Assembly: GCA_964563495.1 (NCBI GenBank)
Contig: CAZLYK010000003.1
Coordinates: 4,554-68,553 of the forward strand
Direction of reading: 5' to 3'
Origin: an uncultured Heliobacteriaceae bacterium
Lineage (GTDB): Bacteria > Acidobacteriota > Blastocatellia > RBC074
DNA: 64,000 bases
Positions 531 through 61,774 of this stretch are shown one piece after another (position 1 is the stretch's first letter; every line of letters starts with the position of its first letter). Below the pieces are notes generated by a model that worked only from the letters and a program-made list of their open reading frames with translations, was not told where the DNA came from and made no database searches. Made by a program: the position numbers and the translations under genes.

Positions 531-628
531 AAATAGACAGGATGACAGCGGTTTTCACGTTTGTCTGACCGCGTCCTCGGGTCAGACAAACGTGAAAACC
601 GCTGTCATCCTGTCCAAATCCTGTCTAT
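531..628. repeat. Palindromic intergenic element E1 (TIR AATAGACAGGAT...ATCCTGTCTATT with a 34-bp perfect core hairpin at 536-612)
   Basis: Left TIR at 531-542, right TIR at 617-628. The perfect stem is gacagcggttttcacgtttgtctgacc / ggtcagacaaacgtgaaaaccgctgtc around a 9-nt loop. The element lies between two cytochrome genes. Confidence 0.8.
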
Positions 629-637
629 TCTGCCTAT

Positions 638-988
638 TTACTTCTTGGCCAACTCGCGGACATACCCGACGAGCTGTTTGCACTTGTCCGCGCCGAGGCT
701 CTTTTCATAGCCCGGCATTTTGCCTTTGCCCTTGGAGGTGACCTCGAGGAGCTTGGCGTCGGTCATTCCCTGAACCTCTTTCGAGCGCAGGTCTTTGAGG
801 TTCAGTTTGGTACCCATGGCAGTCTTGCCGCTGCCGTCTGTGCCATGGCAGCTGGCGCACTTCTGGTTATAAAGCGTCTTGGTCTCCTGGAACATCGGGC
901 CGGCCCCGAGCGAACTCGGTGACCAGGCCACCAAAACCAAGGCGACGGATGCAAAGAAAATAGCCAGTTTTCCAAATTTGGGGTTCAT
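638..988 (-). CDS. Monohaem class I cytochrome c (periplasmic)
   Basis: ORF 638..1057; the likely start is the internal MNPKFGKLAIFF signal peptide, preceded by AAAGGAG. It has a single CASCH motif and GKGKMPGY (Met sixth ligand). It is a paralog of the ORF at 7367..7795. Confidence 0.75.
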   Translation of the reverse strand: MNPKFGKLAIFFASVALVLVAWSPSSLGAGPMFQETKTLYNQKCASCHGTDGSGKTAMGTKLNLKDLRSKEVQGMTDAKLLEVTSKGKGKMPGYEKSLGADKCKQLVGYVRELAKK

Positions 989-1097
989 CGTAAACTCCTT
1001 TAAGTTTAGTGATAGGTTAAGGGGTAAAAACGAACACTTTGATGATCCAATTACCAAATTGGTTCGATTTGATCAAGAGATCACCACCAGTTACAAA

Positions 1098-2771
1098 TTA
1101 ATTCTCACCTTTCCCGATCAGGCGGCGAATCCGCGTGTAGAAGAGCGAGACGACCAGGGCCATCAATCCGAGAAATAGAAAGGCCGCGACGCGGTACTTG
1201 GGCGCCAGGCGCGCCAGATCGACCAGGAATAGATAGACGACAGTTACCAGCATCACCCCCATCGCCATGAAACGATACTTGATATTCTGGAGCAGGTAAC
1301 TGAAGCTAAAATACCCGATCGCGACCGCCGTCCACGAGAGCGTCACATACTGGCCCGGGACGATCTGATACAAGGCGTAGAGAATCATGGCAAAAGCGAT
1401 AAAAAGATAGACGTTACGGAGCGACTCTGTCCGAAGCGTAAGCCGCTCTTTTTGCCAGTTGATAATCCGGGCGCTGGCGTGCGCGACGATGACGAAGCTG
1501 AAATTGACCAGGTTCGAAGACGGAGCGGTCGTCAGGTAAGCGAGCAGGATCCCGATAAAGATCAATGAGTTGACGACGACCAGAAATCTGGACCTGAACC
1601 AGAGAGCCATCGAGACGACGAGCAGGCTTTGCAGCGAGAGCCACAAAAAAGAGGTTGGGATTGCCGCGTATCCGTAGATCGCGATGCTCAGCGCCATAAA
1701 TCCAAAACAGGCATATATTGCCGGCGCCAGTTGCCGGTGTGTCTTCAGCCACTGGATGATCGAGATCAAGAGAAACAGCCCGGCTACACCCAGGTAGACT
1801 GCCGCGTACCTCTCCGGAAAGTGAGTCATGACCGCCAGGAAGGCGAGCAGAGAAAAACCCAGGCAGTTGAGCAAAATCTCGGCAATCGAGATCGAGAGGG
1901 CGGTCTCGGAGTCTGCTTCCTTCCGCAGGAGCGCGGGAAGAGTAAAGATTGCCGCGTATAGAAATAAATAGCCCAGGTTGTATTGATGTTCGGTCACGCC
2001 GCGCAGGGTATGCCCGGCCAGGGGATTGTTGAGCAGCCAGAGCAAATGGGTGGAGTAGGCCAGAATAGTCGTCGCCATGAGCAGCCGCCACCAGCCATAA
2101 CGGATCTCCAGGAAGACTCCGAGGGCGCAAACCACCACCACCAGCGGCAAGCCGATGTGTGTTTTGTCGATCAGCAATGCCGAGACCAGCGCCGAGACGA
2201 TCGCCAGGGTCGCCAGCCCCTGGGATTGCCGCCTGAGCGCGAGATAAAGTTGAAGCCCGACAACTATCAGGAGCAGGGAAAAAGCCGGATAGAGATAACC
2301 GATCAACGGCTCGGCTGAAAAGAAGTGCAGCCGCATGGTCGTGTAAAAGAGCAGCAGCAGGCTGCTGTTGACCGTAATCCGGGACAGGTGCGGGGTGTCT
2401 TTGCTCCAGATCTGCGCAAGATAGGACAACCCGGCGGAAGCCGCGTAGCCCAGAATGCTGGCGAGGATCGGGTATCCGAGGCTGAAGGTATAGGTCACCA
2501 GAAAGACGATGCCGAGAAAGAAAATGATGCTCCCGACCCAGGCCAGGCCGAACTCGCCTATCTTCATCTCGACGGAGCCCTGCCCATACTCCGATGGTTT
2601 CGAAGCAGAGGCGGGCGCCTGTCCGGATGCCGGGCCTGCGAGCTGAGTGACCTCCCCGGCCGGCGCCAATCCAAGGTAGTTTTCGAGACTGGCGATTCGC
2701 ACTTCGAGATTGGTCAGAGCCTCGGATATTTTCGTTTCATCCAGCCCCTGCCGAATTTCCGGATGTGTCAT
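1098..2771 (-). CDS. Polytopic integral membrane protein, DUF2339-like (about 14 predicted TM helices), soluble N-terminal coiled-coil region
   Basis: 557 aa dominated by hydrophobic helices after an 80-aa polar N-terminus. It is embedded in the cytochrome operon. Function is unknown. Confidence 0.5.
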   Translation of the reverse strand: MTHPEIRQGLDETKISEALTNLEVRIASLENYLGLAPAGEVTQLAGPASGQAPASASKPSEYGQGSVEMKIGEFGLAWVGSIIFFLGIVFLVTYTFSLGYPILASILGYAASAGLSYLAQIWSKDTPHLSRITVNSSLLLLFYTTMRLHFFSAEPLIGYLYPAFSLLLIVVGLQLYLALRRQSQGLATLAIVSALVSALLIDKTHIGLPLVVVVCALGVFLEIRYGWWRLLMATTILAYSTHLLWLLNNPLAGHTLRGVTEHQYNLGYLFLYAAIFTLPALLRKEADSETALSISIAEILLNCLGFSLLAFLAVMTHFPERYAAVYLGVAGLFLLISIIQWLKTHRQLAPAIYACFGFMALSIAIYGYAAIPTSFLWLSLQSLLVVSMALWFRSRFLVVVNSLIFIGILLAYLTTAPSSNLVNFSFVIVAHASARIINWQKERLTLRTESLRNVYLFIAFAMILYALYQIVPGQYVTLSWTAVAIGYFSFSYLLQNIKYRFMAMGVMLVTVVYLFLVDLARLAPKYRVAAFLFLGLMALVVSLFYTRIRRLIGKGEN

Positions 2772-2815
2772 AACCTCACCTCAAGATATTGTTAATGACC
2801 AGAGCCAGCCTTCTG

Positions 2816-4123
2816 CTATGGCTTGCTTTCGATCTTCTTGATCTTGAGATAGACCAGGGCGGCGAGAAAGAGGATGAAGAAGAGCGAGACCGCCAGGCCC
2901 TTTCGCCTGAAGCCCAACTCTGAGAGGGCTCTCTCTCCGGCTTTCTGGCTCTTCCTGGCAATTTCAAGGCCGGGATTGATCACTTTTTCGACCTCGCCGA
3001 CGGAGAATGTATGAATCAGGACGCGCGCATTGGTCATGCTGTCTTTCGCTTCGCTCAATTCGAATTTGGGCCGGCTAACCTCCATTCCTGCCCGCTCAGC
3101 CCGGTTGATGATGGCCAGCGCATTCTGATTGGCCGCCAGCAATGCATCCATCATTCCACGCATTTTCTCCGCAACCTGATACCCGTTATCTCCCTGAGTG
3201 TGACAGCTGACGCAGGTCGATTTTTCTCCGACTCCGATCATGTCATCGTGCGGCGGCAGGATGTCGTGATTGTTATGGCACTGGATGCACTCGCCGATCT
3301 GCATCGCGTCGAAAGCGGCCTTGTGAGGGCTGGCCTGGAAGAGCGTCGATTGGCGAACGTGGCACTGTCCGCAGACATTTGCGATCGATGCGACGCCCGG
3401 CGGCGTTGCTCCGTGGTTGCCGTGGCAATCGTTGCAGGTCGGCGCCGAAGTATCCTGACGATCATAGAGGGCTTTGGCGTGGACGCTCCGTTTGTACTTC
3501 TCGTACTGATCGGTAGGGATCTTGTAGCTCTTCATGTAGTCGGCGTTGGCGTGGCATTTGGAGCAGGTTTCGGCGACGTTCATCGAAAAAACGGCCGCCT
3601 GCGGATCGTTGATCGCCCGGACGCCGTGGCTGCCGTGGCAGCTGACGCAGGTGGCGACTTTTTGATCACCGCCTTTAAGCAGCTTGCCGTGCACGCTCGT
3701 GAAATACTCGCGTTCCTGATCGACGCGCAAAGCCGGGTTGAACTGCTTGATGAAGTCGGCGTTGCTGTGGCACTTACCACAGAACCCCGGCACATTTGCC
3801 GGCTTCGGTTTGGCGATGAAGCCTTTACGCGGGTCCATGGCCCGGGTCGGGTCATCCTGTGAAGCATCACCGCCATGGCAATTCGCGCAGGAGAGGCCGC
3901 GGGACTTGTGTATGTCGCCCTTCATTAATAGTTGCACCGGCTCACCGATCGGCCCTTCGATCTGTGAATGGCATTCGATGCAGGAGTCCTTCTTCTGCGC
4001 CGGCGCCAGGCCGAAGAGAAGTATCAAGAGCATCGCCGCGCAAAGCGACTTTCTCAATCCATGTCCGAGCCTTGGTGAGCGGGTGTCTAGCTTAATCTCT
4101 CGATCAATCTCATGCAGATCCAT
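2816..4123 (-). CDS. Nonahaem cytochrome c with a C-terminal transmembrane anchor
   Basis: Nine CxxCH motifs (CIECH, CANCH, CGKCH, CVSCH, CSKCH, CNDCH, CGQCH, CIQCH, CVSCH). A hydrophobic stretch [17 protein letters not shown] lies near the C-terminus. Confidence 0.8.
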
Positions 4124-4137
4124 ATTCCCAGCCTCCC

Positions 4138-5235
4138 CTAGTCAAGATAGCCATAGACGGTCATGGCTACGATAAACAGGACAACCACCAACCCGATAGC
4201 GGTGAAGATCGAGCTTCTTTTGCCTGGTCGCGTTGGTTTGTCTAAAAAGGGAACGAGGAGCCAGAACAGCCCGCCCAGCGCGAATGCCATGATGCCGATC
4301 ACCTCGCCATCGAAGATCAGGATTTTCGCCGGGATCAGTTTGAGCGTCTGGAACATGAAGAGGAAATACCATTCGGGTCTGATGCCTGCCGGAGCGGACG
4401 CGAACGGGTCGGCTTTTTCGCCCAGTTCCCAGGGGAAGATCGCCGCCAGAGCGGCCAGCACGCCGATTGCCAGGATCCAGCCGATCAGGTCGCGGAGGAT
4501 GAAATTGGGAAAGAACTTCATGGTTTTGAGATTCTTTCCCTCAAGGCTCGGCGGCACGCTCATGCCCTGTTTTTGGACGAGCAGCAGGTGGAGGACCAGG
4601 AGGGCGGTCGTGGCGGCCGGAAGGACCGCGACATGGAAGCCGTAGAACCGCGTCAGCGTCGCGCCGGTTACATCTTCGCCGCCGCGGAGGAACCGCAGCA
4701 TGAACTTACCAATGACCGGCACGACGCCGGCGATATCAGTTCCGACTTTGGTCGCGAAGAACGCCAGTTTATTCCACGGGAGCAGATACCCGCTGAATCC
4801 GAAACCCAGCGCGATAAACAGAAGCAGGACTCCGCTGACCCAGGTGAGCTCGCGCGGGGCGCGGTAAGCCTTGAGGAAATAGACGCTGAACATGTGGATG
4901 AAGAGCGTCGCGATCATCAGGTTGGCCGACCAGCTGTGAATCGATCGGATCAACCACCCGAACTGCACCTCGGTCATGATGAACTGGACGCTTTCGAAGG
5001 CGTTTTCGGCGCTCGGCCGGTAATAGAGCAGCAGCAGTATGCCGGTGACTACCTGGACGACGAAGAGGAAGAGCGTCATCCCGCCGAAGTAATACCAGAT
5101 CTCGTGGCGGTGGATCGGGACCTCTTTCTTACGCGCAAACTCCGCTAACGCTTCAATCCCCAACCGCTCGTCCAGCCAGTCTCTGAATGCCGCGGCTCTT
5201 GGGGCTGTTTTGGTCAGCCGTGGATTCATAGTCAC
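4138..5235 (-). CDS. Cytochrome b of a Rieske/cytochrome b (bc-type) complex
   Basis: Paired-His helices ([21 protein letters not shown] and [23 protein letters not shown]) typical of the cytochrome b/b6 N-terminal domain plus a subunit-IV-like C-terminal part. It is directly downstream of a Rieske gene. Confidence 0.85.
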
Positions 5236-5673
5236 CTATCCTTTCGAGACGATGATTTCGTCGCCGCGGGTGTTGACCACGTATTCTTCAAGTGGGCGGG
5301 GCGGCGGGCCGCCGACATTCTGGCCGTTCAGGTTGTAGCGCCCGTTGTGGCAGGCGCACCAGATCCCTTTCATCTCAGGCTGATACTGCACAATGCAATC
5401 CAGATGGGTGCAGGTCGCGGAGAAGGCTTTCAGTTCTCCCGCCGGCGTGCGGATCAACAGACCGGGTTTGTTGCCGAATTTGAAGATCTTCCCGGAGTTC
5501 GCCGCCAGTTCGTTGACTTTCCCGGCGACGACGGAATTCTGAGTCGCTTCGGTCACTTCCGGCGGGGTGATAAATTTGAAGATCGGGTAGAAAATGGCTA
5601 CCAGCGTAGCTCCCGCACTCGTTCCCAGCAGGTAGTTGAGGAAACTACGCCGGCGGTTCACCTCTCGATCCAT
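5236..5673 (-). CDS. Rieske [2Fe-2S] iron-sulfur protein
   Basis: CTHLDC and CACHNGRY boxes. A Tat-like [12 protein letters not shown]-terminus. The start is chosen at MDREV, 7 nt after AGGAGG. The gene abuts cytochrome b. Confidence 0.85.
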
Positions 5674-5705
5674 AAGCATCCTCCTTTTCGTGCAGGTCCT
5701 GGGGG

Positions 5706-7241
5706 TTACGGATTGCTCCCCCCTCCAGAATGGCAATCTATGCACTTGACCCCGCTGAAATCGCCCAGGTCAACCGGGTGCTTGAACGGTTTTCCCTGAA
5801 CCGGCATGACCGGCGCCCCGCCCTCTATCTGGTCAAGCACCGTGTGGCAGATGTTGCAATCGTTTCTCACTACTTTGCCTTCCCGGCTCATATGCTGCCC
5901 GTCGTGGCAGCGGAAGCAACCGGTGAAGTAGTAGTGGCTCAGGTTATCCGGGTGGGTTCGCCAATCGACCTTCATTTCCGGAAAGATGGTGTTGGTAAAG
6001 ATGCGCTGGACTTCCGAGATCGCCCCTTTGACGGACCCCTCGATTTTGGCGTACCGGTCTGAGTAATTGCTCCGATAATAATTTTCCAGGTCGGTCGCGA
6101 TCGTCCTCGTCGCCTCATTGGTAGTGGCATATGACTTGGTCAGCGTCTGGATCGCCTGCTGTTTGATGTACGGCAGCGTACGATCGAGCCTTCCGGCGAG
6201 AAGCGACTCGTCTACCGACCGATCCGGCGGAACATAGATGTGAGAGGGGCGGTTGTGGCAATCCACGCAATCCATCCGCCGCTTGGATGCCTTGGCGATC
6301 TCTTCCGGCGTGAGCGTCGAATCCTTGGCCACGTACTCGGTGATCTGGCCCTGCCTGTCTTTCATCTGTACCCAGGGGATGACCTGTCGCTGTTCATCGG
6401 TCGAGATGTAAGTAATCTCATTGGCGATGTTCATATGCCAGTGAATCCCGGTGACAAAGCCGGACTTGGCGCTGCCCCCACCGGTATTGATCAACATCCT
6501 GATCTGAGTCGGCGTATTGTTCTCGTCGGATGCAAAATGACTGAAGACCTTCATCTGAGCGCCAAAGAACTTCTCCGGCCAATGGCATTGCTCGCAGGTC
6601 TCCTGAGCGGGCCGCAGACTCTTGACCGGGGTGTGGATCGGCGTCGGGTATTTCTTGAAGAGAACGGCGTAGACCTGATATGCGCCGGAGAGCTTCGAGC
6701 GGACATACCACGTGGCGCCCGGGCCGACGTGACAATCGACGCATCCGACCCGTGCGTGAGGCGAGTTCTGATAGGCAATGAACTCCGGGTGCATGACCGA
6801 GTGGCAGGTCTGCCCGCAGAACATAACCGAATCGGTGAACTCATACGCCTGGTAACTTCCAAACGTGCTCAGGAAGAGAAAGATGAAGGACGAAACGACA
6901 AAGATAAAGACCCCGCGGCGTTGTCGCGGGTTGTTCAAATCGATCCTCGGATAGAACGGCATCCCGGCAACGGCGCCCTTATGCCGCCGCCTTCGTTCGA
7001 GGATCATTCCGAGCAGAACCAGCAGCAGGCCAACGATCATGATCGCGGGGAAGACAATGTAAGCGAAGATCCCGATATAAGGATGCTCGCGCTTCCCCAG
7101 CATGTCGACGAGGAAAAGAAAAATGATGCAGATCAGACTGGTCGTGGCAATGACCAACCCCGCCAAACTTATGAAATTGCGCGTCAGCCCGGGTACGTGT
7201 GGATTTTTCGCTTCTTTATCGAGAGGGTTCGGCGAGCTCAT
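5706..7241 (-). CDS. Membrane-anchored heptahaem cytochrome c (N-terminal TM helices)
   Basis: Two to three N-terminal hydrophobic helices followed by CGQTCH, CVDCH, CEQCH, CVDCH, CFRCH, CNICH and CIDCH. Confidence 0.8.
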
Positions 7242-7264: not shown

Positions 7265-7349
7265 AATAGACAGGATGAACAGGATTTTTTCAGGATCGAC
7301 AAGCTGGAGTCCGATCATTCCTGAGAAATTCTGGTTGACCCTGTCTATT
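7265..7349. repeat. Palindromic intergenic element E2
   Basis: The element begins with AATAGACAGGATGAACAGGATTTTTTCAGGAT and ends with a CTGTCTATT terminus. It lies between the heptahaem cytochrome gene and the monohaem cytochrome c paralog. Confidence 0.75.
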
Positions 7350-7837: not shown

Positions 7838-9988
7838 TTAGAAAGTAAACCGCAAGCTGGTCGTCAAAATATTGGCGCGATAGTTCTGGAATGAGTTGAG
7901 AGAGATCGCCTCACTCTCGTTATAGCTGTAATGGCGATAGCTCAAATTCCCAGTCACGTTATTGCTGAACCGATACGCCAACCGAACTTCCGGGTTATGG
8001 CGACGCAGCGGGTACGAATTGACCTGATCGTTTGCCCCGAGCGTGACTGACGGGTTTCCTCGATCCATGATGTAGTAATAAGCCATCAACAGATCGAGTC
8101 GATTGGTCAGCCCGAATCGGGTATTGGCAAAGACCGAGTTGATCCGCGAATAGTAGAGCGACCTTCCGCTGATGCGCTGGGTGCCCAGGGTGTAATTGAT
8201 CAGCGCCTCGGCATAGAGATCGTGATAGTCATACCCGAGGTCGATCATGGCCCGCTGATTGGGTTCCCAGCTGACGGCTCCGGTATAGCTTCTCATATCC
8301 GACTCGTTTTTAACCAGAGGCGTTGGATTGCTTCGGTCGAGGGAAGTGAAAGTCCCGTTGAATCCGAGCTTTTCGGTCGCCTGGATTTGTGCGCGGATAC
8401 GGAACCTGGTGTAATCGAGCGGGGCAATCCGGATAAAAGCATTGTTGTTCTGCCCGTGCTCGACGTCGAACATGAAGCTCGACCGGCCGCCCGGGCGAAT
8501 CCTCACTCCACCGATGAAGGCGTGGGTGTCGATGGACTCCTCTTCATCTTTGATCACCGGATTGGTTGAGGTGGCGTTCCAGATACCCGCCAGTGCGACG
8601 TCCCGCTTCATCGCACGCCACCCTAGATTGGCGGAGAACTTCCTTCCGTAACTGATGTTGGCCTCGAGCGTGTTGCGGTATGAGGATAGATCGGTCAGAT
8701 AGCCGGAGGCGACGGTTCTCGAAAATGTATTGAGAATCGGGCCGGTCCCGGCTTGTTGAACCGAGGTGTTGGTGTAGTCCATGTCTCCCTGGATACGGAA
8801 GGCAGTGTAGTTGAAGGTATCGCTGATCGTCAGGTGTTTATTGATGTCGAGGCTGACGCCGGCGTCAATGATATTCCCGGGTCTTTCGGCGATGCCGCTG
8901 TCATTGGCGAGGCTGAGAGTGCGGGAGATGATGGTCTGCCCATTGTTGGCGCGACCGGTATCTCTTTCCCAGTAACCCGCCCTGATCCGCTCATCGTCGT
9001 GCAGGGCCCGGAAGACTAGATGCAGGCGATCGGCGATCGATCCCCGGATCCCCGCTCGGGTGACCAGAGAACGCGAACGGAACGGAGTATCACGAAAGAG
9101 CGTCGTGATCCGGCCGTTGTCCGTGGTGACATATCCGAGGTCTCCGCCGGCTCTGGAGGTGATGGTCGGATCGTTGCTGAAATTACGGTAAAGCTGCTCG
9201 GCGTTGAAATCCCATTTCCGGTAAGTCGCGTCGATGCCGACACGATAATCATTGGCATCCCAACGAGTATTACCGAAGAGTTGGAAGATGTCGCGTTCGA
9301 AGCTATAAGTGGGTGTGTAGCGCCCCTTGGCCATGCTCCGGCTGTAACCGGCGTTGAACCTGACCGCACGCTGCGGGAAGAGCTTGAGGTTGAAGTCCGA
9401 GATCTGCTGCCGCAGATCGTGATCGCGCCAGGTGACGCCGGGGATCGGCGCGGCATAAGTCCCGACCGAACGGTAGTAATTGAAACGCCGGATATTGGCG
9501 TCAAGGAGATAGAACCGGGTCTTTTCGGCGCGCATGTTAAAGTTCTGCGCCACGTCGCCGCCGGCGTTGTTGACGCTCACCTTCATGAAATCGAAGAGCA
9601 CGCCGGTGCCGGGGCGAGCGCGCATATCGAGCGAATAATCGAGGACCCGGAATCCGTCACGGACGTTGACGTCTGAGAGATAGCGCCCCTCACTCCCGCC
9701 GGTCTCGACGAAGCGATAGCCGAGCTCGATCGAGGTCGTCGTCGAATAGATGCCCCACATCCGTCCGGTTTCGGGCGCCGCCGGCTTCGGATCACTCGGT
9801 TTAGCCGAAGCGACTTTAGCCCGTTCGTACTGAACCTCCAGTTCCTTGGCCTGCTGTGTCGTCTCAGCCTTCTCGACACTGCTCTGCGCCATGACGATCA
9901 CGCCGCACAGCAGAACCAGTGTACAGATCGCTGCCCCCGTCAAAGTTCGGGAGAGCCAGAGAGAGATAGATTGCATCCTGGGTTTCAT
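7838..9988 (-). CDS. Large outer-membrane beta-barrel protein, MtrB/PioB/MtoB-like porin of a porin-cytochrome conduit
   Basis: 716 aa after the start at MKPRMQSISLWLS (signal peptide; AAGGAGG RBS). It has a C-terminal ...SLRFTF with terminal Phe and alternating hydrophobic residues typical of OM barrels. It lies immediately downstream of a periplasmic decahaem cytochrome. Confidence 0.6.
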   Translation of the reverse strand: MKPRMQSISLWLSRTLTGAAICTLVLLCGVIVMAQSSVEKAETTQQAKELEVQYERAKVASAKPSDPKPAAPETGRMWGIYSTTTSIELGYRFVETGGSEGRYLSDVNVRDGFRVLDYSLDMRARPGTGVLFDFMKVSVNNAGGDVAQNFNMRAEKTRFYLLDANIRRFNYYRSVGTYAAPIPGVTWRDHDLRQQISDFNLKLFPQRAVRFNAGYSRSMAKGRYTPTYSFERDIFQLFGNTRWDANDYRVGIDATYRKWDFNAEQLYRNFSNDPTITSRAGGDLGYVTTDNGRITTLFRDTPFRSRSLVTRAGIRGSIADRLHLVFRALHDDERIRAGYWERDTGRANNGQTIISRTLSLANDSGIAERPGNIIDAGVSLDINKHLTISDTFNYTAFRIQGDMDYTNTSVQQAGTGPILNTFSRTVASGYLTDLSSYRNTLEANISYGRKFSANLGWRAMKRDVALAGIWNATSTNPVIKDEEESIDTHAFIGGVRIRPGGRSSFMFDVEHGQNNNAFIRIAPLDYTRFRIRAQIQATEKLGFNGTFTSLDRSNPTPLVKNESDMRSYTGAVSWEPNQRAMIDLGYDYHDLYAEALINYTLGTQRISGRSLYYSRINSVFANTRFGLTNRLDLLMAYYYIMDRGNPSVTLGANDQVNSYPLRRHNPEVRLAYRFSNNVTGNLSYRHYSYNESEAISLNSFQNYRANILTTSLRFTF

Positions 9989-10005
9989 CTTAAGCCTCCT
10001 TTCCT

Positions 10006-11043
10006 TTAGCGGAAGAATCGATCTTTGTTGGACCCGTGAATTTCGAGATGGCAAAGCGTGCAATTCCCATATCGCGGACTGTTGATGTCGTGGCTGGTCG
10101 GGCTTGGCACCCCGATGCCGCCGCCGTCACCGGGTATTCCCGGCGTATTCGAATGGCATTCGATGCAGAGGAACCTGACCAGGTTCCGCGTCAGCAGTTT
10201 CGGGTTGGTCGAGCCGTGTGGCGTATGGCAGGCCTGGCACCCTTCGGCCTTGATCGGAGCGTGTTCAAACACGAACGGCCCCTGCTTGTCGGCGTGACAT
10301 TTGAGACAGGCCAGGTCGCCGTTGACCGAATTGCGCATCGATTTGAGCATAAAACCGCCGTGCTGATTGTGGCAATCGGAGCACTTCATGCCGCCTTCCG
10401 GAACTTTGTGGTGGAAGGGTTTGGCAAAGGTGGACTTTTGCTCGGCGTGGCACTGATAACACATATTCGGCTCGGTGTCCTTGAGCAGGAACTCCGTCCG
10501 CTTCGGGGAATGCGACGAATGGCAGTCCAGGCACGATACGCCGTGACGGGCGTGCTCGCTCCGTCGATAGTTGAAGCGCTCGTCATTCCGGCCCTGCGAG
10601 CCTTCGTGACATTTCAGGCAGATCGCCGTAGTTTCACTCGACGAAAGATCCTTGATATCGCGCATCTTCGCGGCCTCGACTCTGGCCGCGTCGTTCATCA
10701 AGGCGGTGGCTTCGGCGTCTTTACCGTCCTTGAACAGTTGTGCGATGGTCTTCTGGAATTCGGCGTGAGTCCTGGCGCCGCCGTGACACGCCTCGCACCC
10801 GCGCTGATCAACCGGGAACTTGTCGCCCAGTTTGGCGTGCGCCGTTAACGAGAAGAAGGCGTGCTGGCCCGTGTGGCACTCGGCGCAGGTATCGCTGCCG
10901 ATGTATTGGTTCGGGTCGTTGCTGACCGGCTTGCTCTGACCAGGTTTTGGCCTGACCGAAGCCAATGTCGTTCTTAAATTCAAGAACGTTGCGGCTGCAC
11001 CGATCAGGAACAACATTACGACGATCAGCTTGATGTGTCGCAT
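10006..11043 (-). CDS. Periplasmic decahaem cytochrome c, MtrA/PioA/MtoA-like
   Basis: 345 aa with a signal peptide and exactly 10 CxxCH motifs. The size and haem count match MtrA-family partners of MtrB-like porins. Confidence 0.8.
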
Positions 11044-11174
11044 AAGGTTCTCCTTTTAGATTCTCTCTATCCGACGATTTTCTGCGGCTGTTTTGGTCTG
11101 GCCGGACAGAACAGCTTGTTAAAAACAGTAAAAAAACCGGATGGCCTTTTGGGGGTCATCCAGGCAGCCGCAAT

Positions 11175-11987: not shown

Positions 11988-12392
11988 GGTCCTTTTCCTT
12001 TTCTTCCCGGTTCTTCTATTGGAGCGATGAATCCGCCGCCGTCCTTCCCACCTATCTAATGATTGAGACAATCATTTCACCAAGTTAGAGTCACTGCTCT
12101 TGCAAGTGACGATCCAAAACCGGCCCCCGCTGTTTTTTTTTATCTTGATCTGACCAAGGCAAAGCGCTCACACCGCACGAGCGTGATATTTGCGGACTTA
12201 ACGGCTGAATTTTATGTCTGTTGACCCGAATTAGTCTGTGATCCACGGCACACCTAACTGTGACGTAGCGCACAACTGCGGAAAATTATCTACCTTCCGC
12301 CACTCGACGCTGCGTAAATTTCCCCTAATGATTACGGGTTGTCAAGATTATCCTGACCGGGTCTCCGATGCCGGGGAATAAAAGAGGATAAC

Positions 12393-12461
12393 CGCCAGGA
12401 AGCCAGGCGGGCCAAGCGGCAATAAATCTCTCTTCGTCTTGGCCCGCCTGGCTTCCTGGCG
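12393..12461. promoter_or_regulatory. 24-bp perfect inverted repeat with a 21-nt loop in a 510-bp divergent intergenic region
   Basis: The arms are cgccaggaagccaggcgggccaag ... cttggcccgcctggcttcctggcg. Confidence 0.5.
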
Positions 12462-12509
12462 ATTATTCTTGTTGTTGAATGGTATCATGCGGAATATTTT
12501 GTAAATTCA

Positions 12510-12567: not shown

Positions 12568-12582
12568 ACTGAGAGAGCGAAT

Positions 12583-40768: not shown

Positions 40769-40771
40769 AAC

Positions 40772-50458: not shown

Positions 50459-51031
50459 TCAATATTCACAGTTGAGGATCCGACGACGGGTATTTCCCTT
50501 GATGCTCAAATCGATCCCCAGGATCTTGCCGGCCAAACCGCGGATCACCTCGTCTTCCAGCCTGCCGTTAGACTGACCCTCAACCCATTTGTTGCTGTCC
50601 AGGGCATCGGCCACTCGCCCCTGTATATGAGCCGAAACAAAGAGCTGGGAACGTTTTTGATCCAGCGGCAGTGCGCTAATTTCAAGGTAGAACCGGCCTT
50701 GAACCCAGTTTCGAACCTCGGTCGCAGGCATCGCAGCCAGATAATCGAGATCATTGCGAGTCGTCACGCCTTTGCTGAAATTGATCGTTTTCGTGACCAG
50801 CTTGCCCTCGCTCAGCTTGCTCGATTCCTCGTTCAGGTCGATCTTGCAGGTTTTTAATACATCGCGCGCAGTTTGTAGGATCTGCTCGCGAGGCACATTC
50901 ATTGTGTAAGGATTGTTCAACGGCGGTTCTGTCTTGGGGCGGTCAAACTGAATCTGCGCCTGCGCCACAACTGACCAGCAGGCAACTGCCAGAAATGCAA
51001 CAAATAAAGATTGAATTCGAATGTTTTTCAT
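50459..51031 (-). CDS. Hypothetical secreted protein
   Basis: Signal peptide MKNIRIQSLFVAFLAVACWSVVAQA. Confidence 0.35.
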   Translation of the reverse strand: MKNIRIQSLFVAFLAVACWSVVAQAQIQFDRPKTEPPLNNPYTMNVPREQILQTARDVLKTCKIDLNEESSKLSEGKLVTKTINFSKGVTTRNDLDYLAAMPATEVRNWVQGRFYLEISALPLDQKRSQLFVSAHIQGRVADALDSNKWVEGQSNGRLEDEVIRGLAGKILGIDLSIKGNTRRRILNCEY

Positions 51032-51414
51032 ATATCGGTCTTTTCAATTGATTGGGAGAACAATCCAAGAAGACAAGCCATGTGAACAATAACAGGTCGA
51101 CTTAGAGCACATCAAGCCCCTTGCTCAGGAAAGGTCATGCCGCAGTTATCGGTGGCAAGCGGACTGGGCGACTGAGGGAATGGGGGATCGATGATTCAAT
51201 CCCCCATTCTCCTCGTCTCTTCGCCACCAATCACTGAAGCATTACCGGCATGGAAATATTTTCATAGCGGTTTAGCCATCATGTTGTAAGAATTACCGGA
51301 ATGAGCCGGCCCGGCATCGGCGTGTGGTTTTTTATTTAAATAGTAACTTACTGGAAATACAGGTTTTCTGCGATTTATCGGGGACTTGCCGCCCGTGGCA
51401 TTGTGATTGCAGTA

Positions 51415-51497
<83 letters not shown>

Positions 51498-51503
51498 AAA
51501 TCA

Positions 51504-51545
51504 GGCGCTACAGACTTCCCACGACTGTAGCGCCTTTTATTTTGT
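51504..51545 (+). terminator. Rho-independent terminator in a long noncoding gap
   Basis: ggcgctacagacttcccacgactgtagcgcc followed by a TTTTATTTT run. Confidence 0.55.
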
Positions 51546-51878
51546 CTAAATCTGTTTTAATTCTGGAAGTTTTGGTAGATTTAGGATGCATCTTCTTCGA
51601 GGCCCTCTATCTTGATGGCATACTTCAGATCAACTAGGTATGCCCCATTCTCACTATGTTCAGACCTTAAAAAGTTCATCGAGCTTTTATTCAATCAAAA
51701 AAATACAGTTTTGAAAAAGACATCAATCAGGAAAGTCCGAGATAGGGTCTGGTGAAAAAGATGGCTGTGCAGGCGGTGTGGTCGGCGCATGGGAGCGGGC
51801 CTGTTAAGGGATTGCGGTAGGGGATGCACCGCATTCGCGACATGCGCCGACCAGACTGTCTGATACTTTCTTGACACG

Positions 51879-51907
51879 CTTTCCCGCCATTGGCTATGTT
51901 GCTTGCC
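51879..51907 (+). promoter_or_regulatory. Candidate sigma70-type promoter for the gene at 51939
   Basis: TTGACA, a 17-bp spacer, then CTATGT. Confidence 0.3.
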
Positions 51908-51938
51908 TTAACTTCCGACTGAGAAATTGAGTGCATGC

Positions 51939-54564: not shown

Positions 54565-54658
54565 AAATAGACAGGATTAACAGGATTTTCACAGGATTAA
54601 ACAAGATCAAAGACAAACCAAAGAAGCATCCTGTGAAAATCCTGTTAATCCTGTCTAT
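54565..54658. repeat. Palindromic intergenic element E10 (32-bp perfect TIRs)
   Basis: AATAGACAGGATTAACAGGATTTTCACAGGAT ... ATCCTGTGAAAATCCTGTTAATCCTGTCTATT. Confidence 0.85.
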
Positions 54659-54682
54659 TTTCTCCTTTCCCGAGGAGAAGTT

Positions 54683-55623: not shown

Positions 55624-55643
55624 TCAAATCATCGGACAGAATT

Positions 55644-55707
55644 GGACAGGGAGTAAAAAAAGACGGAGCAAGATTTTCTTGCTCCGTCTTTTTTTACTCC
55701 CTGTCCA
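55644..55707. terminator. Bidirectional rho-independent terminator
   Basis: Perfect hairpin ggacagggagtaaaaaaagacggagcaag attttctt gctccgtctttttttactccctgtcc between convergent genes. Confidence 0.75.
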
Positions 55708-58981: not shown

Positions 58982-59095
58982 ATTCGACTGAAATCGAATG
59001 GGTTACAGCGGTTTTTCAGTTTCGTGCGTCTGACAGGACGCACGAAACTGAAAAACCGCTGTAACCCTGCAAACGTCCCGTTAATTCTGTCTATT
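58982..59095. repeat. Palindromic intergenic element E12 (type II core hairpin plus right TIR)
   Basis: 28-bp stem ggttacagcggtttttcagtttcgtgcg / cgcacgaaactgaaaaaccgctgtaacc with loop TGACAGGA, then AATTCTGTCTATT. Confidence 0.7.
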
Positions 59096-59743
59096 GTCTG
59101 CTTCGATAATTTCCAATCTGCGCCACTGCCTGCGCAGTTGCAGAACTTCGTCCGCCAGTTCGCTCAACTGAGCTTTGATCTTTGTCCCGTCTTCCAGCCC
59201 GACAAGGTGGGGGTAACGACGTGGGAGGGCCAGTTGGCGAACCGGCTCGCGAGCCGTCGCCGGAACACGGGTGATCATTTGATAAATTCGAAATTCCGCC
59301 GGTCCCAGATCTCGCTTGACCCATCTGAGGATCCTGCCTATTTCGGGGTCGCATTCGGAGACGGCATTGAGTAAAGCGCTGCAGATGAAGGCAGCGCAGA
59401 AGACCGTCTTGCCGAATTTGTTGTTTGGATCGCAACCCTGCGAGCCGATCACGCGGCAGGTTGGTGGACAGCAGCCCGTACCCTGTTCGTGGCAGCGGCG
59501 GCAGATCTCGAGAACGCCGCTTGCGGCAAAGAACCGGTCGAGTTCTGCGATCAGTTCATGGCGGGTGATCTCCCCGGGCGTTTCGGCTCTCTGGTATCGC
59601 TCATCTCTGGCGCAGCGCGGACAGAGCACAAAATCGCTCTCCTCGTGCGGTTCACCGCGGGGCGCAAGAGTGTAAAGCCGATACCGGCGGGCGTTTGCCG
59701 CACCGCAGGATTGGCAGGTTCCATCCTGTTTGAGTAAGACCAT
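59081..59743 (-). CDS. Cysteine-rich hypothetical protein (zinc-ribbon plus CxxC...CC cluster)
   Basis: CQSC...CPRC and CRRCHEQGTGCC motifs. The last codons and stop (NRQN*) are encoded by element E12. Confidence 0.4.
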   Translation of the reverse strand: MVLLKQDGTCQSCGAANARRYRLYTLAPRGEPHEESDFVLCPRCARDERYQRAETPGEITRHELIAELDRFFAASGVLEICRRCHEQGTGCCPPTCRVIGSQGCDPNNKFGKTVFCAAFICSALLNAVSECDPEIGRILRWVKRDLGPAEFRIYQMITRVPATAREPVRQLALPRRYPHLVGLEDGTKIKAQLSELADEVLQLRRQWRRLEIIEADNRQN

Positions 59744-59781
59744 TCTTTATTTTCACTGGAATCAGCGGATCAAAGAAGAGA

Positions 59782-59842
59782 AAAGACAGGATTAACCGGA
59801 TTTCGACAGGATTAAACAGGATCGCTGTCATCCTCTCTATTT
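59782..59842. repeat. Palindromic intergenic element E11 (variant TIRs)
   Basis: AAAGACAGGATTAACCGGATTTCGACAGGATTAAACAGGATCGCTGTCATCCTCTCTATT. Confidence 0.6.
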
Positions 59843-59895
59843 CTCTTTCTTCTCGAATTTTTTCGGTCAGATGATGACCTTCGTCCAAGCCGGCC

Positions 59896-61599
59896 CTAAA
59901 GATTGCCCCGCTTCAATTCATCAGCCAGGTAATCGCAGGCGCGCGCCGTGATCGCCATCATGGTCAATGTCGGATTCTGACAACCCTGTGAGACGAAGCA
60001 CGACCCGTCGGTGACAAAGACGTTCTTGGCATCCCAGAGCTGGTTCCACTTGTTGAGGACGGAAGTCCCGGCGTCGACGCCCATGCGAGCGGTCCCGACC
60101 TCGTGAATGCAGAAGCCGGGAGGCGCCGGAGAATTGCTCGCGAATTGAGTTTCAAAACCGGCGGCGTCGGCCATCTCGCGAATTGATTCAAGGGCGTCCA
60201 CGGCCATGGCGCGCTCGTTGTCGCTGTGCGTACATGCTATGTGTAGCACGGGGATGCCCCAGGCGTCGACTTTGTTCGGATCGATCGTGGCCCGGTTCTC
60301 TCTGCGAGGCAACATCTCGCACCAGGCGCCGAGCCAGAAGTTCACCTCGTTCGGGTTTTCGCGGACAAACTTCTTGAATTCGGCACCAAAGCCGGGACGC
60401 TGTTTGGCGTGGTCATAGGTGTAACCCAGCCCGGCGCGGCCCTGCATCCCGTAACCGCGAATGAAGTTCGGATGCCTGGCTTTTAGATTGCGGAAGCGCG
60501 GGATATAGACCCCGTTGGCGCGACCGTCGGAGTAATCGTATTCCATCCCTTTGAGCGTCGGCACGACGCCGCCCGCGCTGATCTGAAACATGTGGTCCAT
60601 GAGGTAGCGACCGACCAGATCCGAAGAGTTGCCGAAGCCATTGGGATGCCGGCTCGACTTCGAATTCAAGAGAATCCGCGTCGATTCGAGCGTCGAGGCG
60701 CAGAGCACGATGACCCTGCCGTATTCTTCATCATCCTTTTTGGTCAGCTGATCGACTACGCGAACGCCTTTCGCCTTGCCGGTTTTGTCATCGATCAGGA
60801 TTTCACGGACGACGGCGTTTGGGCGCAGGGCCAGGCGCCCGGTCTTCGCCGCTGCGGGCAGTGTCGAGCCGACGCTGCTGAAATAGGAATGGGTATCGCA
60901 GCCGCGGTCGCAATGGCCGCAATAATGGCACTGCGCTCGACCCTGGTGCGGTCTGGTCAGAATCGCGGCGCGGCCGATGATCACTTTGCGATCGTCCCAC
61001 CGCTTCTCGACCGCGTGCTTGAGCAGCTGTTCACCGCAAGTCATGGCCATCGGCGGCAGAAATTTGCTGTCGGGCAATTGAGGAAGGTTCTCGGATGATC
61101 CGCTGATCCCGACAAAATCCTCGACCTGCTCGTAATAGGGCTCCAGGTCTTTGAGACTGATCGGCCAATCCACGCCATAGCCGTCGCGACTCGCGGCTTT
61201 GAAATCGAAATCCGAAAGGCGGTACGACTGGCGTCCCCAGGTCAGCGAGCGACCTCCGACCTGGCGCCCGCGTATCCACCAGAAAGGTTTGTCCTCCGGC
61301 GTGGAGTAGGGATTATCCAGATCGTCGACAAAGAAATGGGCGCTGTATTCGTTGCCGGCGTAGCACCTGCTCTGAATCGGCTGGCGCGGCGCGTAGACCG
61401 ACCCTGGCGCCAGGCCGCGGTATTTGAGCTGATAGGGCTCAGTCAGCATGCGATAGTCTTTTTTCGGATCGACATGCCTGCCCGCTTCGAGGACAAGTAC
61501 TTTGAGCCCCTTCTCCGTCAGCACTTTGGCGGCCCAACCGCCAGTCGCTCCAGAACCGACGACGATTGCATCGTAGACCTTTCGCTTGGCTCTTTGCAT
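59896..61599 (-). CDS. GMC-family FAD-dependent oxidoreductase
   Basis: N-terminal [12 protein letters not shown] Rossmann motif. AGGAGA RBS. Confidence 0.8.
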
Positions 61600-61686
61600 C
61601 AATGGATTCTCCTGTTTATGGTGCGCTCGAACGACAATCTAACCCAGGAAGCACAGCGACAGCAATCTTGACCTGAACCGGAGGAA

Positions 61687-61774
61687 AATAGACAAGATTA
61701 TAGCAAGTTTCACGTTTGTGCGACCACGTCCTCGCGGTCGCACAAACGTGAAACTTGCTATAATCCTGTCTATT
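61687..61774. repeat. Palindromic intergenic element E13 (type I core hairpin, sister of E1)
   Basis: AATAGACAAGAT ... ATCCTGTCTATT with stem agcaagtttcacgtttgtgcgacc / ggtcgcacaaacgtgaaacttgct and loop ACGTCCTCG. Confidence 0.8.

Follow-up and report, generated by a model that had tools for sequence, protein, structure and literature searches.

The Correia repeats of Neisseria (CREE / NEMIS) are 69-157-bp intergenic palindromes without an ORF, which have TA-ended inverted repeats, duplicate their target, form long hairpins in transcripts and fall into size classes through internal deletion, and for which neither an enzyme nor a mechanism of mobilisation has been assigned (PMC2649163, PMC2229807). 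TA-ended bacterial MITEs such as ERIC and RUP are similarly non-coding, intergenic and shorter than 200 bp, with inverted termini bounded by 5'-TA-3' and stable RNA hairpins (PMC2229807), and each is confined to a genus or family. In REPIN-RAYT systems, abundant non-autonomous palindromes with compensated stems accompany one small nuclease-type gene and no multi-copy insertion sequence; the RAYT itself is an HUH/Y1 transposase located outside the repeats and flanked by them, and the systems are mostly inherited vertically according to the RAREFAN preprint. When a 2024 census grouped bacterial MITEs at 95% identity, none of its 111,245 clusters mixed phyla (PMC11602168). The repeat family described here, which populates a 64,000-nucleotide stretch of acidobacterial DNA (the window), displays all the Correia features of TA termini, transcript hairpins, deletion size classes and no assigned mobilising enzyme, together with the general organization of ERIC and RUP and the abundance, compensated stems and single small nuclease-type gene of REPIN-RAYT systems. 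In contrast to these systems it is shared across phyla, its arms are arrays of iterated 9-11-bp units rather than the one 26-bp terminal repeat of the Neisseria-restricted Correia family or GTAG-tagged REP hairpins, and the IHF site of the longest Correia class is not seen. In addition, it has a form that encloses a nuclease gene inside the hairpin loop, whereas no ORF-bearing Correia form is described in the cited sources.

The terminus AATAGACAGGAT occurs 24 times in the window with at most one mismatch, against 0.15 expected from shuffles, which establishes as real the palindromic terminal-repeat family reported in an earlier note on this DNA; ACAGGATT also occurs 24 times, against 1.45 expected. 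The reported density of at least 14 copies, one per about 4.5 kb, holds for loci (approximately 14, one per roughly 4.6 kb), but only 10 of these are complete palindromes (61–134 bp), with a further 4 partial copies. Each arm comprises TA, then GACAGGAT, then 1–3 further xCAGGAT units at a spacing of 9–11 bp. The 12-bp terminus previously read as one unit is not one. With the flank left unconstrained, GACAGGAT has TA directly ahead of it in 18/24 arms from hosts and 20/25 from viruses (38/49 in total), and the two bases ahead of TA vary, being AA in hosts and TT in phages. The copies occupy intergenic spacers of housekeeping operons; they have inverted arms, encode nothing, differ in size and are sometimes truncated, with intact and decayed members mixed. 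Identical copies are present in two independent assemblies of the same population (L070 and L072, 99.95% identical), thus the window copies are not assembly artefacts. The 12-mer at 59331-59342 is probably a chance match: it has one mismatch, stands alone in a coding ORF and lacks neighbouring sub-repeats.

The largest and best-preserved copy (47196-47329, 134 bp) lies between convergent genes; its 50-nt arms, of four units each, are 98% complementary and separated by a loop of 44 nt, and the tatC stop codon, CTA at 47325-47327, falls within the copy. Also between convergent genes, the 98-bp copy at 532-629 combines CAGGAT arms on the outside with an inner hairpin of 35 perfectly paired bp (536-570 with 580-614), and holds the TAG stop (534-536) of ORF 6-536. 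The 94-bp copy at 54566-54659, with three units per arm and 97% complementarity, separates aroB from the next gene, ending 23 nt before the start codon of the latter and approximately 11 nt before its GAGGAG ribosome-binding site. In the 88-bp copy at 61687-61774 a 48-nt arm pair, inner core hairpin included, is 94% complementary. Within the hyp cluster, a 99-bp complete copy (19164-19262) lies between hypB and hypF, a plus-strand half copy retaining the left arm only (21582-21640) directly follows the hypF stop codon, and a complete, partly decayed 76-bp copy (27015-27090) separates hypD from hypE, its terminus encoding the last five hypD codons and the TGA stop at 27027-27029 (HypD C-terminus GNRQD*). 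The RND efflux operon holds an 83-bp complete copy (32695-32777) between the membrane-fusion gene and acrB, while a minus-strand half copy with the right arm only (29590-29637; terminus ATCATGTCTATT) precedes the outer-membrane efflux gene by 66 nt. Two complete but decayed copies lie between tandem minus-strand genes, one of 85 bp (7265-7349, partly decayed), with 23 nt between it and the start codon of gene 5706-7241, and a short one of 61 bp (59781-59841). A complete short copy of 68 bp (38562-38629) separates an amidohydrolase gene from a rhodanese/beta-lactamase-fold gene. At 59000-59095 the left arm is missing, leaving a perfect 31-bp core hairpin (59000-59067) and a right arm ending at 59095 that encodes the final codons and stop of the minus-strand ORF 59081-59743 (DNRQN*). 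The core-hairpin module also stands alone at 37539-37586, with 21-bp arms, the base GGTTTTCA...TGAAAACC and no recognisable outer arms.

Intact window copies fold from either strand into 36-48-bp stems (dG -58 to -98 kcal/mol, z -12 to -18). Across 20 aligned copies a 32-bp stem is 95.8% paired and contains 21 compensated cells, compared with 5.5±2.5 in shuffles, of which 0/500 reach the observed value; the inner stems of copies 61687-61774 and 532-629 likewise differ by compensated changes. Arm complementarity is preserved through such changes, and the scarcity of G·U-type changes points to symmetry at the level of DNA or of both strands. Quasi-palindrome correction during replication is a known mutational process and could account for the covariation in place of selection or a transposition mechanism.

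The copies are insertions, because relatives have compact hyp clusters without them: the hypB–hypF spacer measures 6 nt in L073 against the 99-bp copy of the window, and the hypD–hypE spacer, occupied in the window, is 18 nt in L073 and similarly empty in L075. The half copy at 21582-21640 lies on the left boundary of three inserted genes (21637-25643), which L073 also lacks. The L054/L065 pair speaks for insertion as well, since every copy in one genome has an unrelated hairpin in its place in the other. No target duplication other than TA was observed. As close relatives provided no clean empty site, a TA duplication is suggested by the invariance of TA and by one nested copy (L044), in which the inner element occupies AA-TA-TT at the centre of the outer palindrome.

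The motif also occurs outside the window and its lineage. The family architecture extends to at least eight phylum-level groups and to phage contigs, 16 of which contain arms. Complete copies were found in Acidobacteriota, Gamma- and Betaproteobacteria, Armatimonadota, Sumerlaeota, Planctomycetota, Verrucomicrobiota and Bacteroidota, names that come mostly from MAG labels, some of which look wrong, and on a Thiodictyon plasmid. Element GC is 31–40%, against 53–65% for the host loci, and is constant whatever the host GC. Between phylum-level groups the copies are 66-89% identical, and thus the 2024 census would not have merged them. No Rfam model matches the family and neither terminus 12-mer appears in any relevant paper of the searchable literature. 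The earlier failure to place the termini in a known family stands to this extent, qualified by a weak likeness to the Correia repeats.

Across loci, the 74 classifiable copies include 34 tandem, 28 convergent and 7 divergent placements, and the element supplies the stop codon at 21/90 stop-facing junctions. The statement that no copy lies inside a gene is nearly right, although the last few codons of a gene, stop included, often fall within a copy. Flanks show a symmetric preference and are pyrimidine-rich on both sides. This enrichment at gene 3' ends and rarity between divergent genes, along with very stable hairpins on both strands between pyrimidine-rich flanks, would be expected of host-selected functional hairpins (bidirectional terminators, RNase III sites, mRNA stabilisers or CsrA-type arrays) that are not mobile at present. 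Canonical terminator-like sites in the window at 44-64 kb are at chance level (24 found, 21.8 expected), and Correia hairpins are RNase III substrates (PMC2649163). Hairpin families also replace one another at orthologous sites, as in the L054/L065 pair (~80-83% identical), where an unrelated hairpin replaces each copy in the other genome, and an orthologous copy in L030/L056 is 97% identical within surroundings of 87-90%. The CsrA SELEX consensus RUACARGGAUGU is similar to the unit UACAGGAU, but the GGA motifs would be buried in long duplex, an arrangement ill-suited to CsrA binding. Strong termination is unlikely at copies located inside read-through operons (hypB-hypF, hypD-hypE and membrane-fusion gene-acrB), and many copies are decayed. 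Since host function alone cannot explain a cross-phylum sequence of constant low GC, the phage copies or the arms around nuclease genes, we consider it an improbable account of the family; exaptation of individual hairpins is compatible with mobility but does not replace it.

The same arms also occur in versions of 0.46–0.6 kb, where they surround the gene for a ~125-aa GxxExxY PD-(D/E)XK nuclease (TIGR04256/PF13366), a family of unassigned function that has passed between bacterial divisions several times (PMC3424549). Of the eight GxxExxY genes in 1.4 Mb of element-bearing DNA, five lie between a left and a right arm and a sixth is directly adjacent to a copy; all four genes chosen by protein similarity alone, one from an Anaerolineae genome, lie between arms. 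The ORF of L001 is framed by arms that pair without a mismatch and have the same sequence as the 79-bp copies of that lineage, and intermediate forms of 290-370 bp share a subterminal hairpin with the ORF-bearing copy of L119. Among distant nuclease relatives, 2/3 checked repeat the layout with units of their own, ACAGAGA in Bernardetia and CGCGGAT in Gemmatirosa. The nuclease shows no variation at its catalytic residues (E of GxxExxY, D66, E76-x-K78 and Q90xxxY94), and the fold, confidently predicted (pLDDT 87), corresponds to a RecB/Cas4-type nuclease core. The window itself holds no full-length nuclease-bearing copy, and a protein-pattern scan of viral contigs found no nuclease relative. 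Split arms can also be occupied by other cargo, an alpha/beta hydrolase gene in L068. The full-length parent sought by the earlier note therefore exists, with matching termini, but it carries the GxxExxY nuclease and neither a transposase nor a RAYT.

Of the earlier assignment to MITE or REP/BIME-like elements, the first part is retained, as the copies are non-coding, sometimes truncated, bounded by inverted arms and absent from orthologous sites, and the second is not supported, as no tag, REP hairpin or RAYT was seen. A REP/REPIN-RAYT arrangement, in which a single-copy domesticated IS200-like tyrosine (HUH) transposase acts on single-stranded hairpins, would fit high-copy intergenic palindromes with compensated stems and no multi-copy transposase, and the ATAG beside the stem is reminiscent of the GTAG tag that REPs carry (PMC3733652). 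It is nevertheless very hard to credit: there is no GTAG or CGTC tag, the arms lack the short GC-rich REP hairpin, no RAYT gene was seen, and the associated gene is a PD-(D/E)XK nuclease within the hairpin rather than a repeat-flanked Y1 transposase. The mostly vertical inheritance within lineages described in the RAREFAN preprint also differs from a near-constant family found across phyla.

Mobilisation by a TA-duplicating DDE transposase (IS630/Tc1/mariner-like), as long suspected for Correia, would make these repeats classical MITEs and the nuclease a passenger or a homing-endonuclease-like loop invader. The TA that bounds the arms with no other duplication, the symmetric flanks and the nested L044 insertion accord with this, the repeated units of each arm could offer a transposase more than one binding site, and split arms accept cargo. 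The Correia repeats, with TA-ended inverted repeats and a target duplication, offer a parallel: their terminus TATAGTGGATTAACAAAAATCAGGACAA aligns with the arms at 22/28 positions, with ATAG, GGATTAACA and TCAGGA in common order. The alignment scores 26 against 11.3±4.3 in shuffles (0/500 reach it), and for the mean over 117 arms 5/500 shuffles do as well; the termini weakly resemble Correia repeats, a statistically modest likeness that was noticed before it was tested, and the TA register relative to the aligned ATAG differs between the two families. However, no transposase was found between or beside the arms in about 1.4 Mb of element-bearing DNA, and the nuclease is the sole gene repeatedly enclosed by arms, including in the 4/4 sample not selected for them. 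Two of three distant subfamilies having their own cognate unit arms argues for co-evolution rather than random invasion, and a DDE transposase accordingly seems an unlikely source of the copies.

We favour, at a probability of roughly 0.6, the reading that the window repeats are the gene-less, non-autonomous (MITE-like) form of the nuclease-carrying element family. The link between nuclease and arms is one of association, from which we infer that the nuclease moves the copies. It would be supplied in trans, presumably from a full-length copy elsewhere in the genome, and would recognise the unit arrays, or a hairpin or cruciform formed by them, leading to copying or movement of the element. Insertion would take place at TA in short spacers, often the TA of a TAA or TAG stop, which the element would rebuild as TAG. 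Copies may then persist because the upstream gene is ended cleanly and the gap from a stop codon to the following ribosome-binding site accommodates them. The hairpin and its pyrimidine-rich tracts might further serve, in either direction, as an RNA-processing, stabilising or terminator-like signal. A single-domain nuclease of ~125 aa is small for a transposase, and it could alternatively be a selfish gene that colonises hairpin loops. Free-standing PD-(D/E)XK homing endonucleases and ORF-bearing 23S rRNA intervening sequences also place a small, selfish-looking ORF in the loop of a long stem, and the former likewise exemplify PD-(D/E)XK nucleases serving mobile DNA. Homing, however, requires a homologous empty allele, and homing-type elements are not known to leave hundreds of ORF-less intergenic hairpins, while the 23S intervening sequences reside in rRNA and typically encode a four-helix-bundle protein, unlike the GxxExxY nuclease. 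The element with its nuclease gene appears to be a small, mobile-looking and previously undescribed one.

The 64-kb window contains 24 sites that match AATAGACAGGAT with at most one mismatch, where dinucleotide-preserving shuffles predict 0.15, and the sub-repeat ACAGGATT also occupies 24 sites (1.45 expected from shuffles). The earlier note had claimed at least 14 copies of a palindromic repeat; about 14 loci are indeed present, but ten are complete palindromes of 61–134 bp and four are partial, of which two are single arms (left at 21582, right with its end at 29637) and two retain a core hairpin (59000–59095 with a right arm, 37539–37586 alone). This hairpin is an inner stem module of some copies, and a comparison of GACAGCGGTTTTCACG with GACAGGATTTTTCAGG by eye suggests that it is the inner portion of the same arm after divergence. 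A further 12-mer match at 59331 was rejected as a copy, being located inside a coding ORF, devoid of sub-repeats and probably due to chance. Intact copies display stems of 36–48 bp on either strand, with ΔG values between −58 and −98 kcal/mol and z-scores between −12 and −18, and some window copies are clearly decayed. Arm identity is higher within than between copies (0.68 vs 0.57 in the window, 0.94 vs 0.89 in one MAG), a modest excess that fits a family mixing young and old members. The same population is represented by two further, independently made short-read assemblies (L070 and L072); at 99.95% identity to the window they contain identical copies and offered no empty site.

Comparison of the window copies with 70 copies of other genomes defines the anatomy of the repeat. 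Each arm consists of a terminal unit followed by one to three xCAGGAT units at a spacing of 9, 11 and 10 bp, and the other arm mirrors this array across a variable loop. When no constraint is placed on the flank, GACAGGAT has TA in front of it in 18/24 host and 20/25 viral arms (38/49 in total), and the two bases ahead of the TA are usually AA in hosts and usually TT in phages. Since the TA is usual and the bases preceding it depend on host or phage, the 12-bp terminus first described as one unit is a composite of a two-base flank preference, the TA and the first unit. The built-in TA excepted, no direct repeat of 2–7 bp marks a target-site duplication under any boundary definition. The flanks outward of either end are rich in pyrimidines, and complementarity specific to the partner continues for another 4 nt or so. 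In an alignment of 20 copies, 95.8% of the 32-bp stem is paired, and nine pairs are compensated on both sides (21 cells vs 5.5±2.5 in shuffles, 0/500). Plain mismatches (27 cells) outnumber one-sided G·U-type changes (5 cells), a pattern that points to Watson–Crick symmetry of the DNA, or of both strands, and away from selection on one RNA strand.

The window genes are housekeeping only and include cytochrome bc and multihaem cytochromes, a NiFe hydrogenase with hypA–F, an RND efflux pump, TatBC, aroB, arginine decarboxylase and deoxyhypusine synthase; the closest named relatives of HypD are in Blastocatellia and Acidobacteria MAGs (83% identity), which makes an acidobacterium the most likely source of the window. 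Neither a transposase nor a RAYT nor CsrA was found among 40 window ORFs scanned with Pfam or six more Pfam-labelled genes. All window copies are located in short spacers, some within apparent operons (hypB–hypF, hypD–hypE, membrane-fusion gene–acrB). The initial observation that none lies inside a gene is nearly right, but genes often extend a few codons into the copy. HypD terminates in GNRQD-stop, encoded by GGA AAT AGA CAG GAT TGA of a copy, the ORF at 59081–59743 ends within a copy as DNRQN-stop, and the terminus TAG provides the stop codon of ORF 6–536 and of tatC. Among 74 classifiable copies, 34 are in tandem, 28 in convergent and 7 in divergent gene context. The stop codon is the terminus TAG at 17 of 90 stop-facing junctions, and at 4 further junctions it is a TGA or TAA where the first two units meet; such element-donated stops would be expected if elements inserted at the TA of TAA or TAG stop codons. 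ORFs called into arms acquire tails such as NRQD, NPVNPV or DPVNPDENPVNPV, artefactual or real, and arm-derived C-termini are displayed by window HypD, by the nuclease relatives P0190 and P0213, by P0146 and by ORF 3590–3922 of locus L068.

Orthologous loci reveal that the copies are insertions. In the related genome L073 the hyp cluster is compact: hypB and hypF are 6 nt apart, hypF and hypC 4 nt, and hypD and hypE 18 nt. At these junctions the window carries copies at hypB–hypF and hypD–hypE and a half copy at hypF–hypC. The hypD–hypE spacer is empty in L075 and is occupied in L074 by an unrelated palindromic repeat family. Similarly, in the syntenic loci L054 and L065 (about 80–83% identical) a copy in one is replaced by a different hairpin in the other, in both directions, one of the replacements being a GTAG-type REP-like palindrome. 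The copies therefore show the presence/absence polymorphism at orthologous sites that characterizes MITEs (L073, L075 and two L054/L065 sites). Other orthologous sites retain the copy, as in L030 and L056, where it is 97% identical within surroundings of 87–90% identity. Three genes separate hypF from hypC in the window (21637–25643), encoding a PALP-family enzyme, an AstE/AspA-family protein and formate-tetrahydrofolate ligase, while hypF and hypC are adjacent in L073; the left junction of this insertion coincides precisely with a half copy, and the right junction has none.

The motif is by no means confined to the window. A species scan for complete copies with perfect termini, using one genome per species and taxa by record title, gave at least 69 loci, and the matches listed came from Blastocatellia and other Acidobacteriota, Chthonomonadaceae, Sumerlaeota, Planctomycetales, Chthoniobacterales, Lewinellaceae, Sulfuricaulis, Allochromatium warmingii DSM 173 and Beta- and Gammaproteobacteria MAGs. 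One unannotated copy is carried by a plasmid of Candidatus Thiodictyon syntrophicum Cad16T, a metagenome scan gave at least 120 loci, and 16 IMG/VR contigs contain an arm or a full copy. The phage-contig arms and copies examined lie between genuine phage structural genes, and single phage-contig arms were rejected as transposon ends, being flanked by structural genes such as those for terminase, portal and adaptor. An nhmmer profile of the 32-nt arm was too insensitive for a census. Element GC is 31–40% in every group, a composition foreign to the host loci (53–65%), and the best full-length identity between phylum-level groups is 66–89%. Taxon names are mostly MAG labels, some of them doubtful. 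The ‘Heliomicrobium’ labels of L056, which is syntenic with a Blastocatellia locus at 87–90%, and of L054 look wrong, as do those of the ‘Streptomycetaceae’ loci (L068, L010 and others; GC 62–67%), which carry a protein family otherwise common only to Beta- and Gammaproteobacteria loci. We take this family to be Bug-type tricarboxylate-binding. The multi-phylum distribution is nevertheless secure, because cultured Chromatiaceae, multi-megabase contigs and the GC spread together support it. In a 2024 census of prokaryotic MITEs, none of the 111,245 bacterial clusters formed at 95% identity combined different phyla (PMC11602168); the present family would fall below that threshold and is therefore unusual rather than contradictory to the census. 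A purely functional origin of the hairpins cannot explain this distribution and is improbable, although exaptation of some copies as terminator, processing site or stabiliser is likely. Compared with intrinsic terminators, the stems are long and AT-rich, both flanks are pyrimidine-rich, and a simple scan does not call the copies.

Clustering of all ORFs within 1.5 kb of arms in 1.38 Mb of collected DNA identified one non-trivial recurrent family, a reading frame of about 160 aa that matches PF13366 (PDDEXK_3; E 3e-34 to 3e-43) and TIGR04256 (‘GxxExxY protein’; E 1e-35 to 1e-42). The other recurrent ORFs encode only ABC ATPases, Bug-family proteins and a phage portal. In L001, from a Blastocatellia MAG, the layout is TAGACAGGATTTACAGGATTTTTCAGGAT - 24 nt - ORF - ATCCTGAAAAATCCTGTAAATCCTGTCTA, and the two arms are perfectly complementary and identical to the arms of the 79-bp copies of its own lineage. 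The long form with the same arms is found in L001, L119, L195, L213, L223, L231 and L233, and four ORF-bearing copies measured about 0.46–0.61 kb. Eight GxxExxY homologues are present in the collected DNA, all at loci preselected for arms; five are enclosed by arms on the left and right and a sixth abuts a copy. Because of that preselection, four further relatives were picked by protein similarity only, namely P0190, P0213 (Blastocatellales), P0183 (Anaerolineae MAG) and P0195 (5.17-Mb Acidobacteriota chromosome). All four genes are wedged between unrelated housekeeping genes, with ACAGGATT-type units ending 15–25 nt upstream of the ATG and ATCCTGT-type units at or just past the stop codon. 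Enclosure of the nuclease gene by the arms is tight and recurrent. Forms of 290–370 bp (L109, L165) with the same arms share the subterminal hairpin TTTCTCACTTCC...GGAAGTGAGAAA with the ORF-bearing L119 copy and look like deletion intermediates. A longer armed form with matching termini exists, as sought for a full-length parent, but its gene encodes a nuclease and neither a recognised transposase nor a RAYT. A protein-pattern scan confirmed no nuclease in viral contigs. In locus L068 (1456–3689) the arms of one element, with complementary inner parts, lie 2.2 kb apart around a gene for a 667-aa alpha/beta hydrolase (PF20091), reflecting either cargo capture or insertion into the loop; the hydrolase is an ordinary member of its kind.

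The invariant residues of the nuclease in 12- and 26-member alignments comprise the Glu (E27) and Tyr of GxxExxY, D66, E76-x-K78 and Q90, and Y94 is nearly invariant; judged from these alignments, they constitute a complete predicted PD-(D/E)XK site with a RecB-type QxxxY motif. Above-cut-off TIGR04256/PF13366 matches, intact catalytic residues and a predicted PD-(D/E)XK-type fold place the protein in the GxxExxY/PDDEXK_3 family. Sequence comparison detected no solved structure. The AlphaFold model is confident (pLDDT 87.4, pTM 0.80), with the arm-derived tail disordered (residues 125–138, pLDDT below 50), and its closest solved folds are weak matches (TM 0.45–0.52) to Cas4 SSO0001, lambda-type and alkaline exonucleases, MGME1 and Hjc resolvases. 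A superfamily survey describes PF13366 as of unknown function, present in prokaryotes and viruses and transferred multiple times between bacterial divisions (PMC3424549), and a full-text literature search retrieved no functional study of GxxExxY, PF13366 or TIGR04256.

The best-supported reading is that the window repeats, which have no ORF themselves, derive from a small element with the nuclease as its sole gene. The nuclease would act on the arms and promote movement, the TA would be the duplicated target, and the hairpins may exert effects at the RNA level; a full-length copy is assumed to reside elsewhere in the genome of the window organism. The main rival assigns movement to a conventional transposase that duplicates TA and treats the nuclease as a passenger that invaded the loop; it draws on the TA ends and on a resemblance of the arms to Correia repeats. 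It is rather unlikely, as no such transposase was found in about 1.4 Mb and two of three distant nuclease subfamilies inspected possess cognate arms. ORF clustering and an inverted-repeat screen of this collected DNA found no DDE or HUH transposase with the arms; among inverted repeats 700–3200 bp apart, none with element termini encloses a transposase. An IS4 copy on the Thiodictyon plasmid was dismissed as a source since its ends are unrelated. The distant PF13366 members, on plasmids of cultured bacteria, lack CAGGAT arms, and the two with the same design use other units: the Bernardetia ORF has ACAGAGA units upstream and TCTCTGT units downstream, and the Gemmatirosa gene is directly followed at its 3′ side by a palindrome of three CGCGGAT and three ATCCGCG units. 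The Fusobacteria copy is flanked instead by direct repeats of about 45 nt.

The original MITE-like description agrees with the inverted arms, small size and missing ORF of the ten complete copies, and the view that the family could not be placed is borne out by Rfam, in which the window has no gathering-level match. Rfam 15, in gathering and E-value modes, returned for the window only sub-threshold generic microRNA-precursor hairpins, the larger element forms had no match, and literature searches by sequence and lineage retrieved nothing relevant. The alternative REP/BIME-like description fails. REP units are GC-rich imperfect palindromes of 20–40 bp tagged with GTAG/CGTC, whereas the present arms are AT-rich arrays of direct units without a self-complementary REP unit, and CAGGAT and ATCCTG are absent from the main text of a REP catalogue paper (PMC3733652). 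In REPIN-RAYT systems a Y1/HUH RAYT gene is flanked by the repeats, whereas the gene associated here is PF13366, and no RAYT recurs near arms in about 1.4 Mb. With these defining features failing, a REPIN-RAYT system is highly improbable. In behaviour, the closest described relatives are REPINs and the Neisseria Correia elements. Correia elements (69–157 bp) likewise have TA at their termini and a palindromic non-coding body (PMC2649163, PMC2229807). Their long form contains an IHF-binding core with the site CTTCAGCACCTTA, and their transcripts are cleaved by RNase III (PMC2649163); CTTCAGCACCTTA was not noticed by eye in the copies inspected. The Correia terminus TATAGTGGATTAACAAAAATCAGGACAA (PMC5039591) agrees with some arms in 22 of the 28 positions of an alignment that contains two gaps, scoring 26 against 11.3±4.3 in shuffles (0/500), and the mean of 117 arms is 12.9 against 2.2±3.8 (5/500). 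This resemblance is suggestive only, because it had been noted before it was tested, and the copies were rejected as Correia repeats proper, the 26-bp TATAGTGGATTAACAAAAA(CCGGTACGG / TCAGGACAA) being absent at the ends and the similarity partial.

Several other assignments were discarded. CsrA sites are a resemblance only, since the stem would bury the GGA motifs, and comparison with DnaA boxes, IHF sites, Pho boxes, integron attC and Tn5, Tn7 or Mu ends gave no fit. The window copies are dispersed inverted pairs and not a CRISPR array. The regular 76-bp array of L122, retrieved through a relaxed 10-mer, is an unrelated genuine CRISPR (1497–2680; 37-bp repeat GTAGAAGTAGACTGGATGCCCCCAGGGGCATTACGAC), whose one-mismatch match to the terminal 10-mer is probably a coincidence; two true element copies lie directly past its last repeat (2807–2966).

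Other hairpins populate the same kind of spacer. Long intergenic hairpins without CAGGAT termini are present at 12385–12469, 12507–12572, 40718–40772 and 55643–55707 (arms 24–32 nt, two of them perfect), and the window genome seems to hold several palindromic repeat families. Same-population short-read contigs (L070, L076) break at or beside such hairpins and at a CAGGAT copy. Unrelated TGCCACGGGCTTGTCCCGTGG-type palindromic repeats occur in L074 (7090–7320) and GTAG-tagged REP-like hairpins in L054 (~5536), and in L085 (near 9600–11070) a GTAG hairpin lies within a CAGGAT-type copy, which suggests nesting of hairpin elements or replacement of one by another. The arm module is arranged in tandem in L192 (13340–13840; about 15 repeats of a T-run plus TAGACAGGATTAACAGGATTAACAGG) and amplified as 88-bp tandem units in L181 (6520–6900), and the Lewinellaceae contig L044 contains tandem 17-bp ATCCTGTCTATTAAAAT units (1740–1910). 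A perfect 35-nt inverted-repeat pair in L008 (TCCCCGTGGTTGAGTTTCCGTCCGAATGTTTCCTG; 3568–5835, 2.27 kb apart), unrelated to the element, may be an insertion sequence. Within the ORF-free gap 51031–51927, a stretch of about 125 nt (51421–51547) is 80–82% identical to Blastocatellia L043 (6114–6245), displays compensated stem changes (GGTGGTTACC...GGTAACCAC vs GGCGGCTGCC...GGTAGCCGCC), ends in a canonical GC-rich hairpin with a T-run (51496–51547) and matches no Rfam family; by these features it looks like a conserved small RNA.

GxxExxY proteins (PF13366/TIGR04256) may be the mobilising enzymes of a hitherto unrecognised pan-bacterial class of small hairpin elements, in which each subfamily recognises its own unit array, ORF-less palindromes are shed and movement between phyla takes place partly on phages; Correia elements, whose mobilising enzyme has never been identified (PMC2649163, PMC2229807), could be a diverged branch. 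This tentative proposal is given a probability of roughly 0.3. If true, it would provide the first biological context for the ‘GxxExxY protein’, a family of thousands of members with unknown function, and a concrete candidate for how Correia-like repeats move, and small palindromic repeats may arise without a DDE transposase or RAYT. The ends of the family are recognisable across many phyla and phages, whereas bacterial MITE clusters in a large census are almost wholly genus-specific. For annotation, the copies explain altered gene 3′ ends (donated stops, NRQD or NPV tails), as well as short-read contig breaks and long hairpins in operons of Acidobacteriota and other soil and freshwater bacteria.
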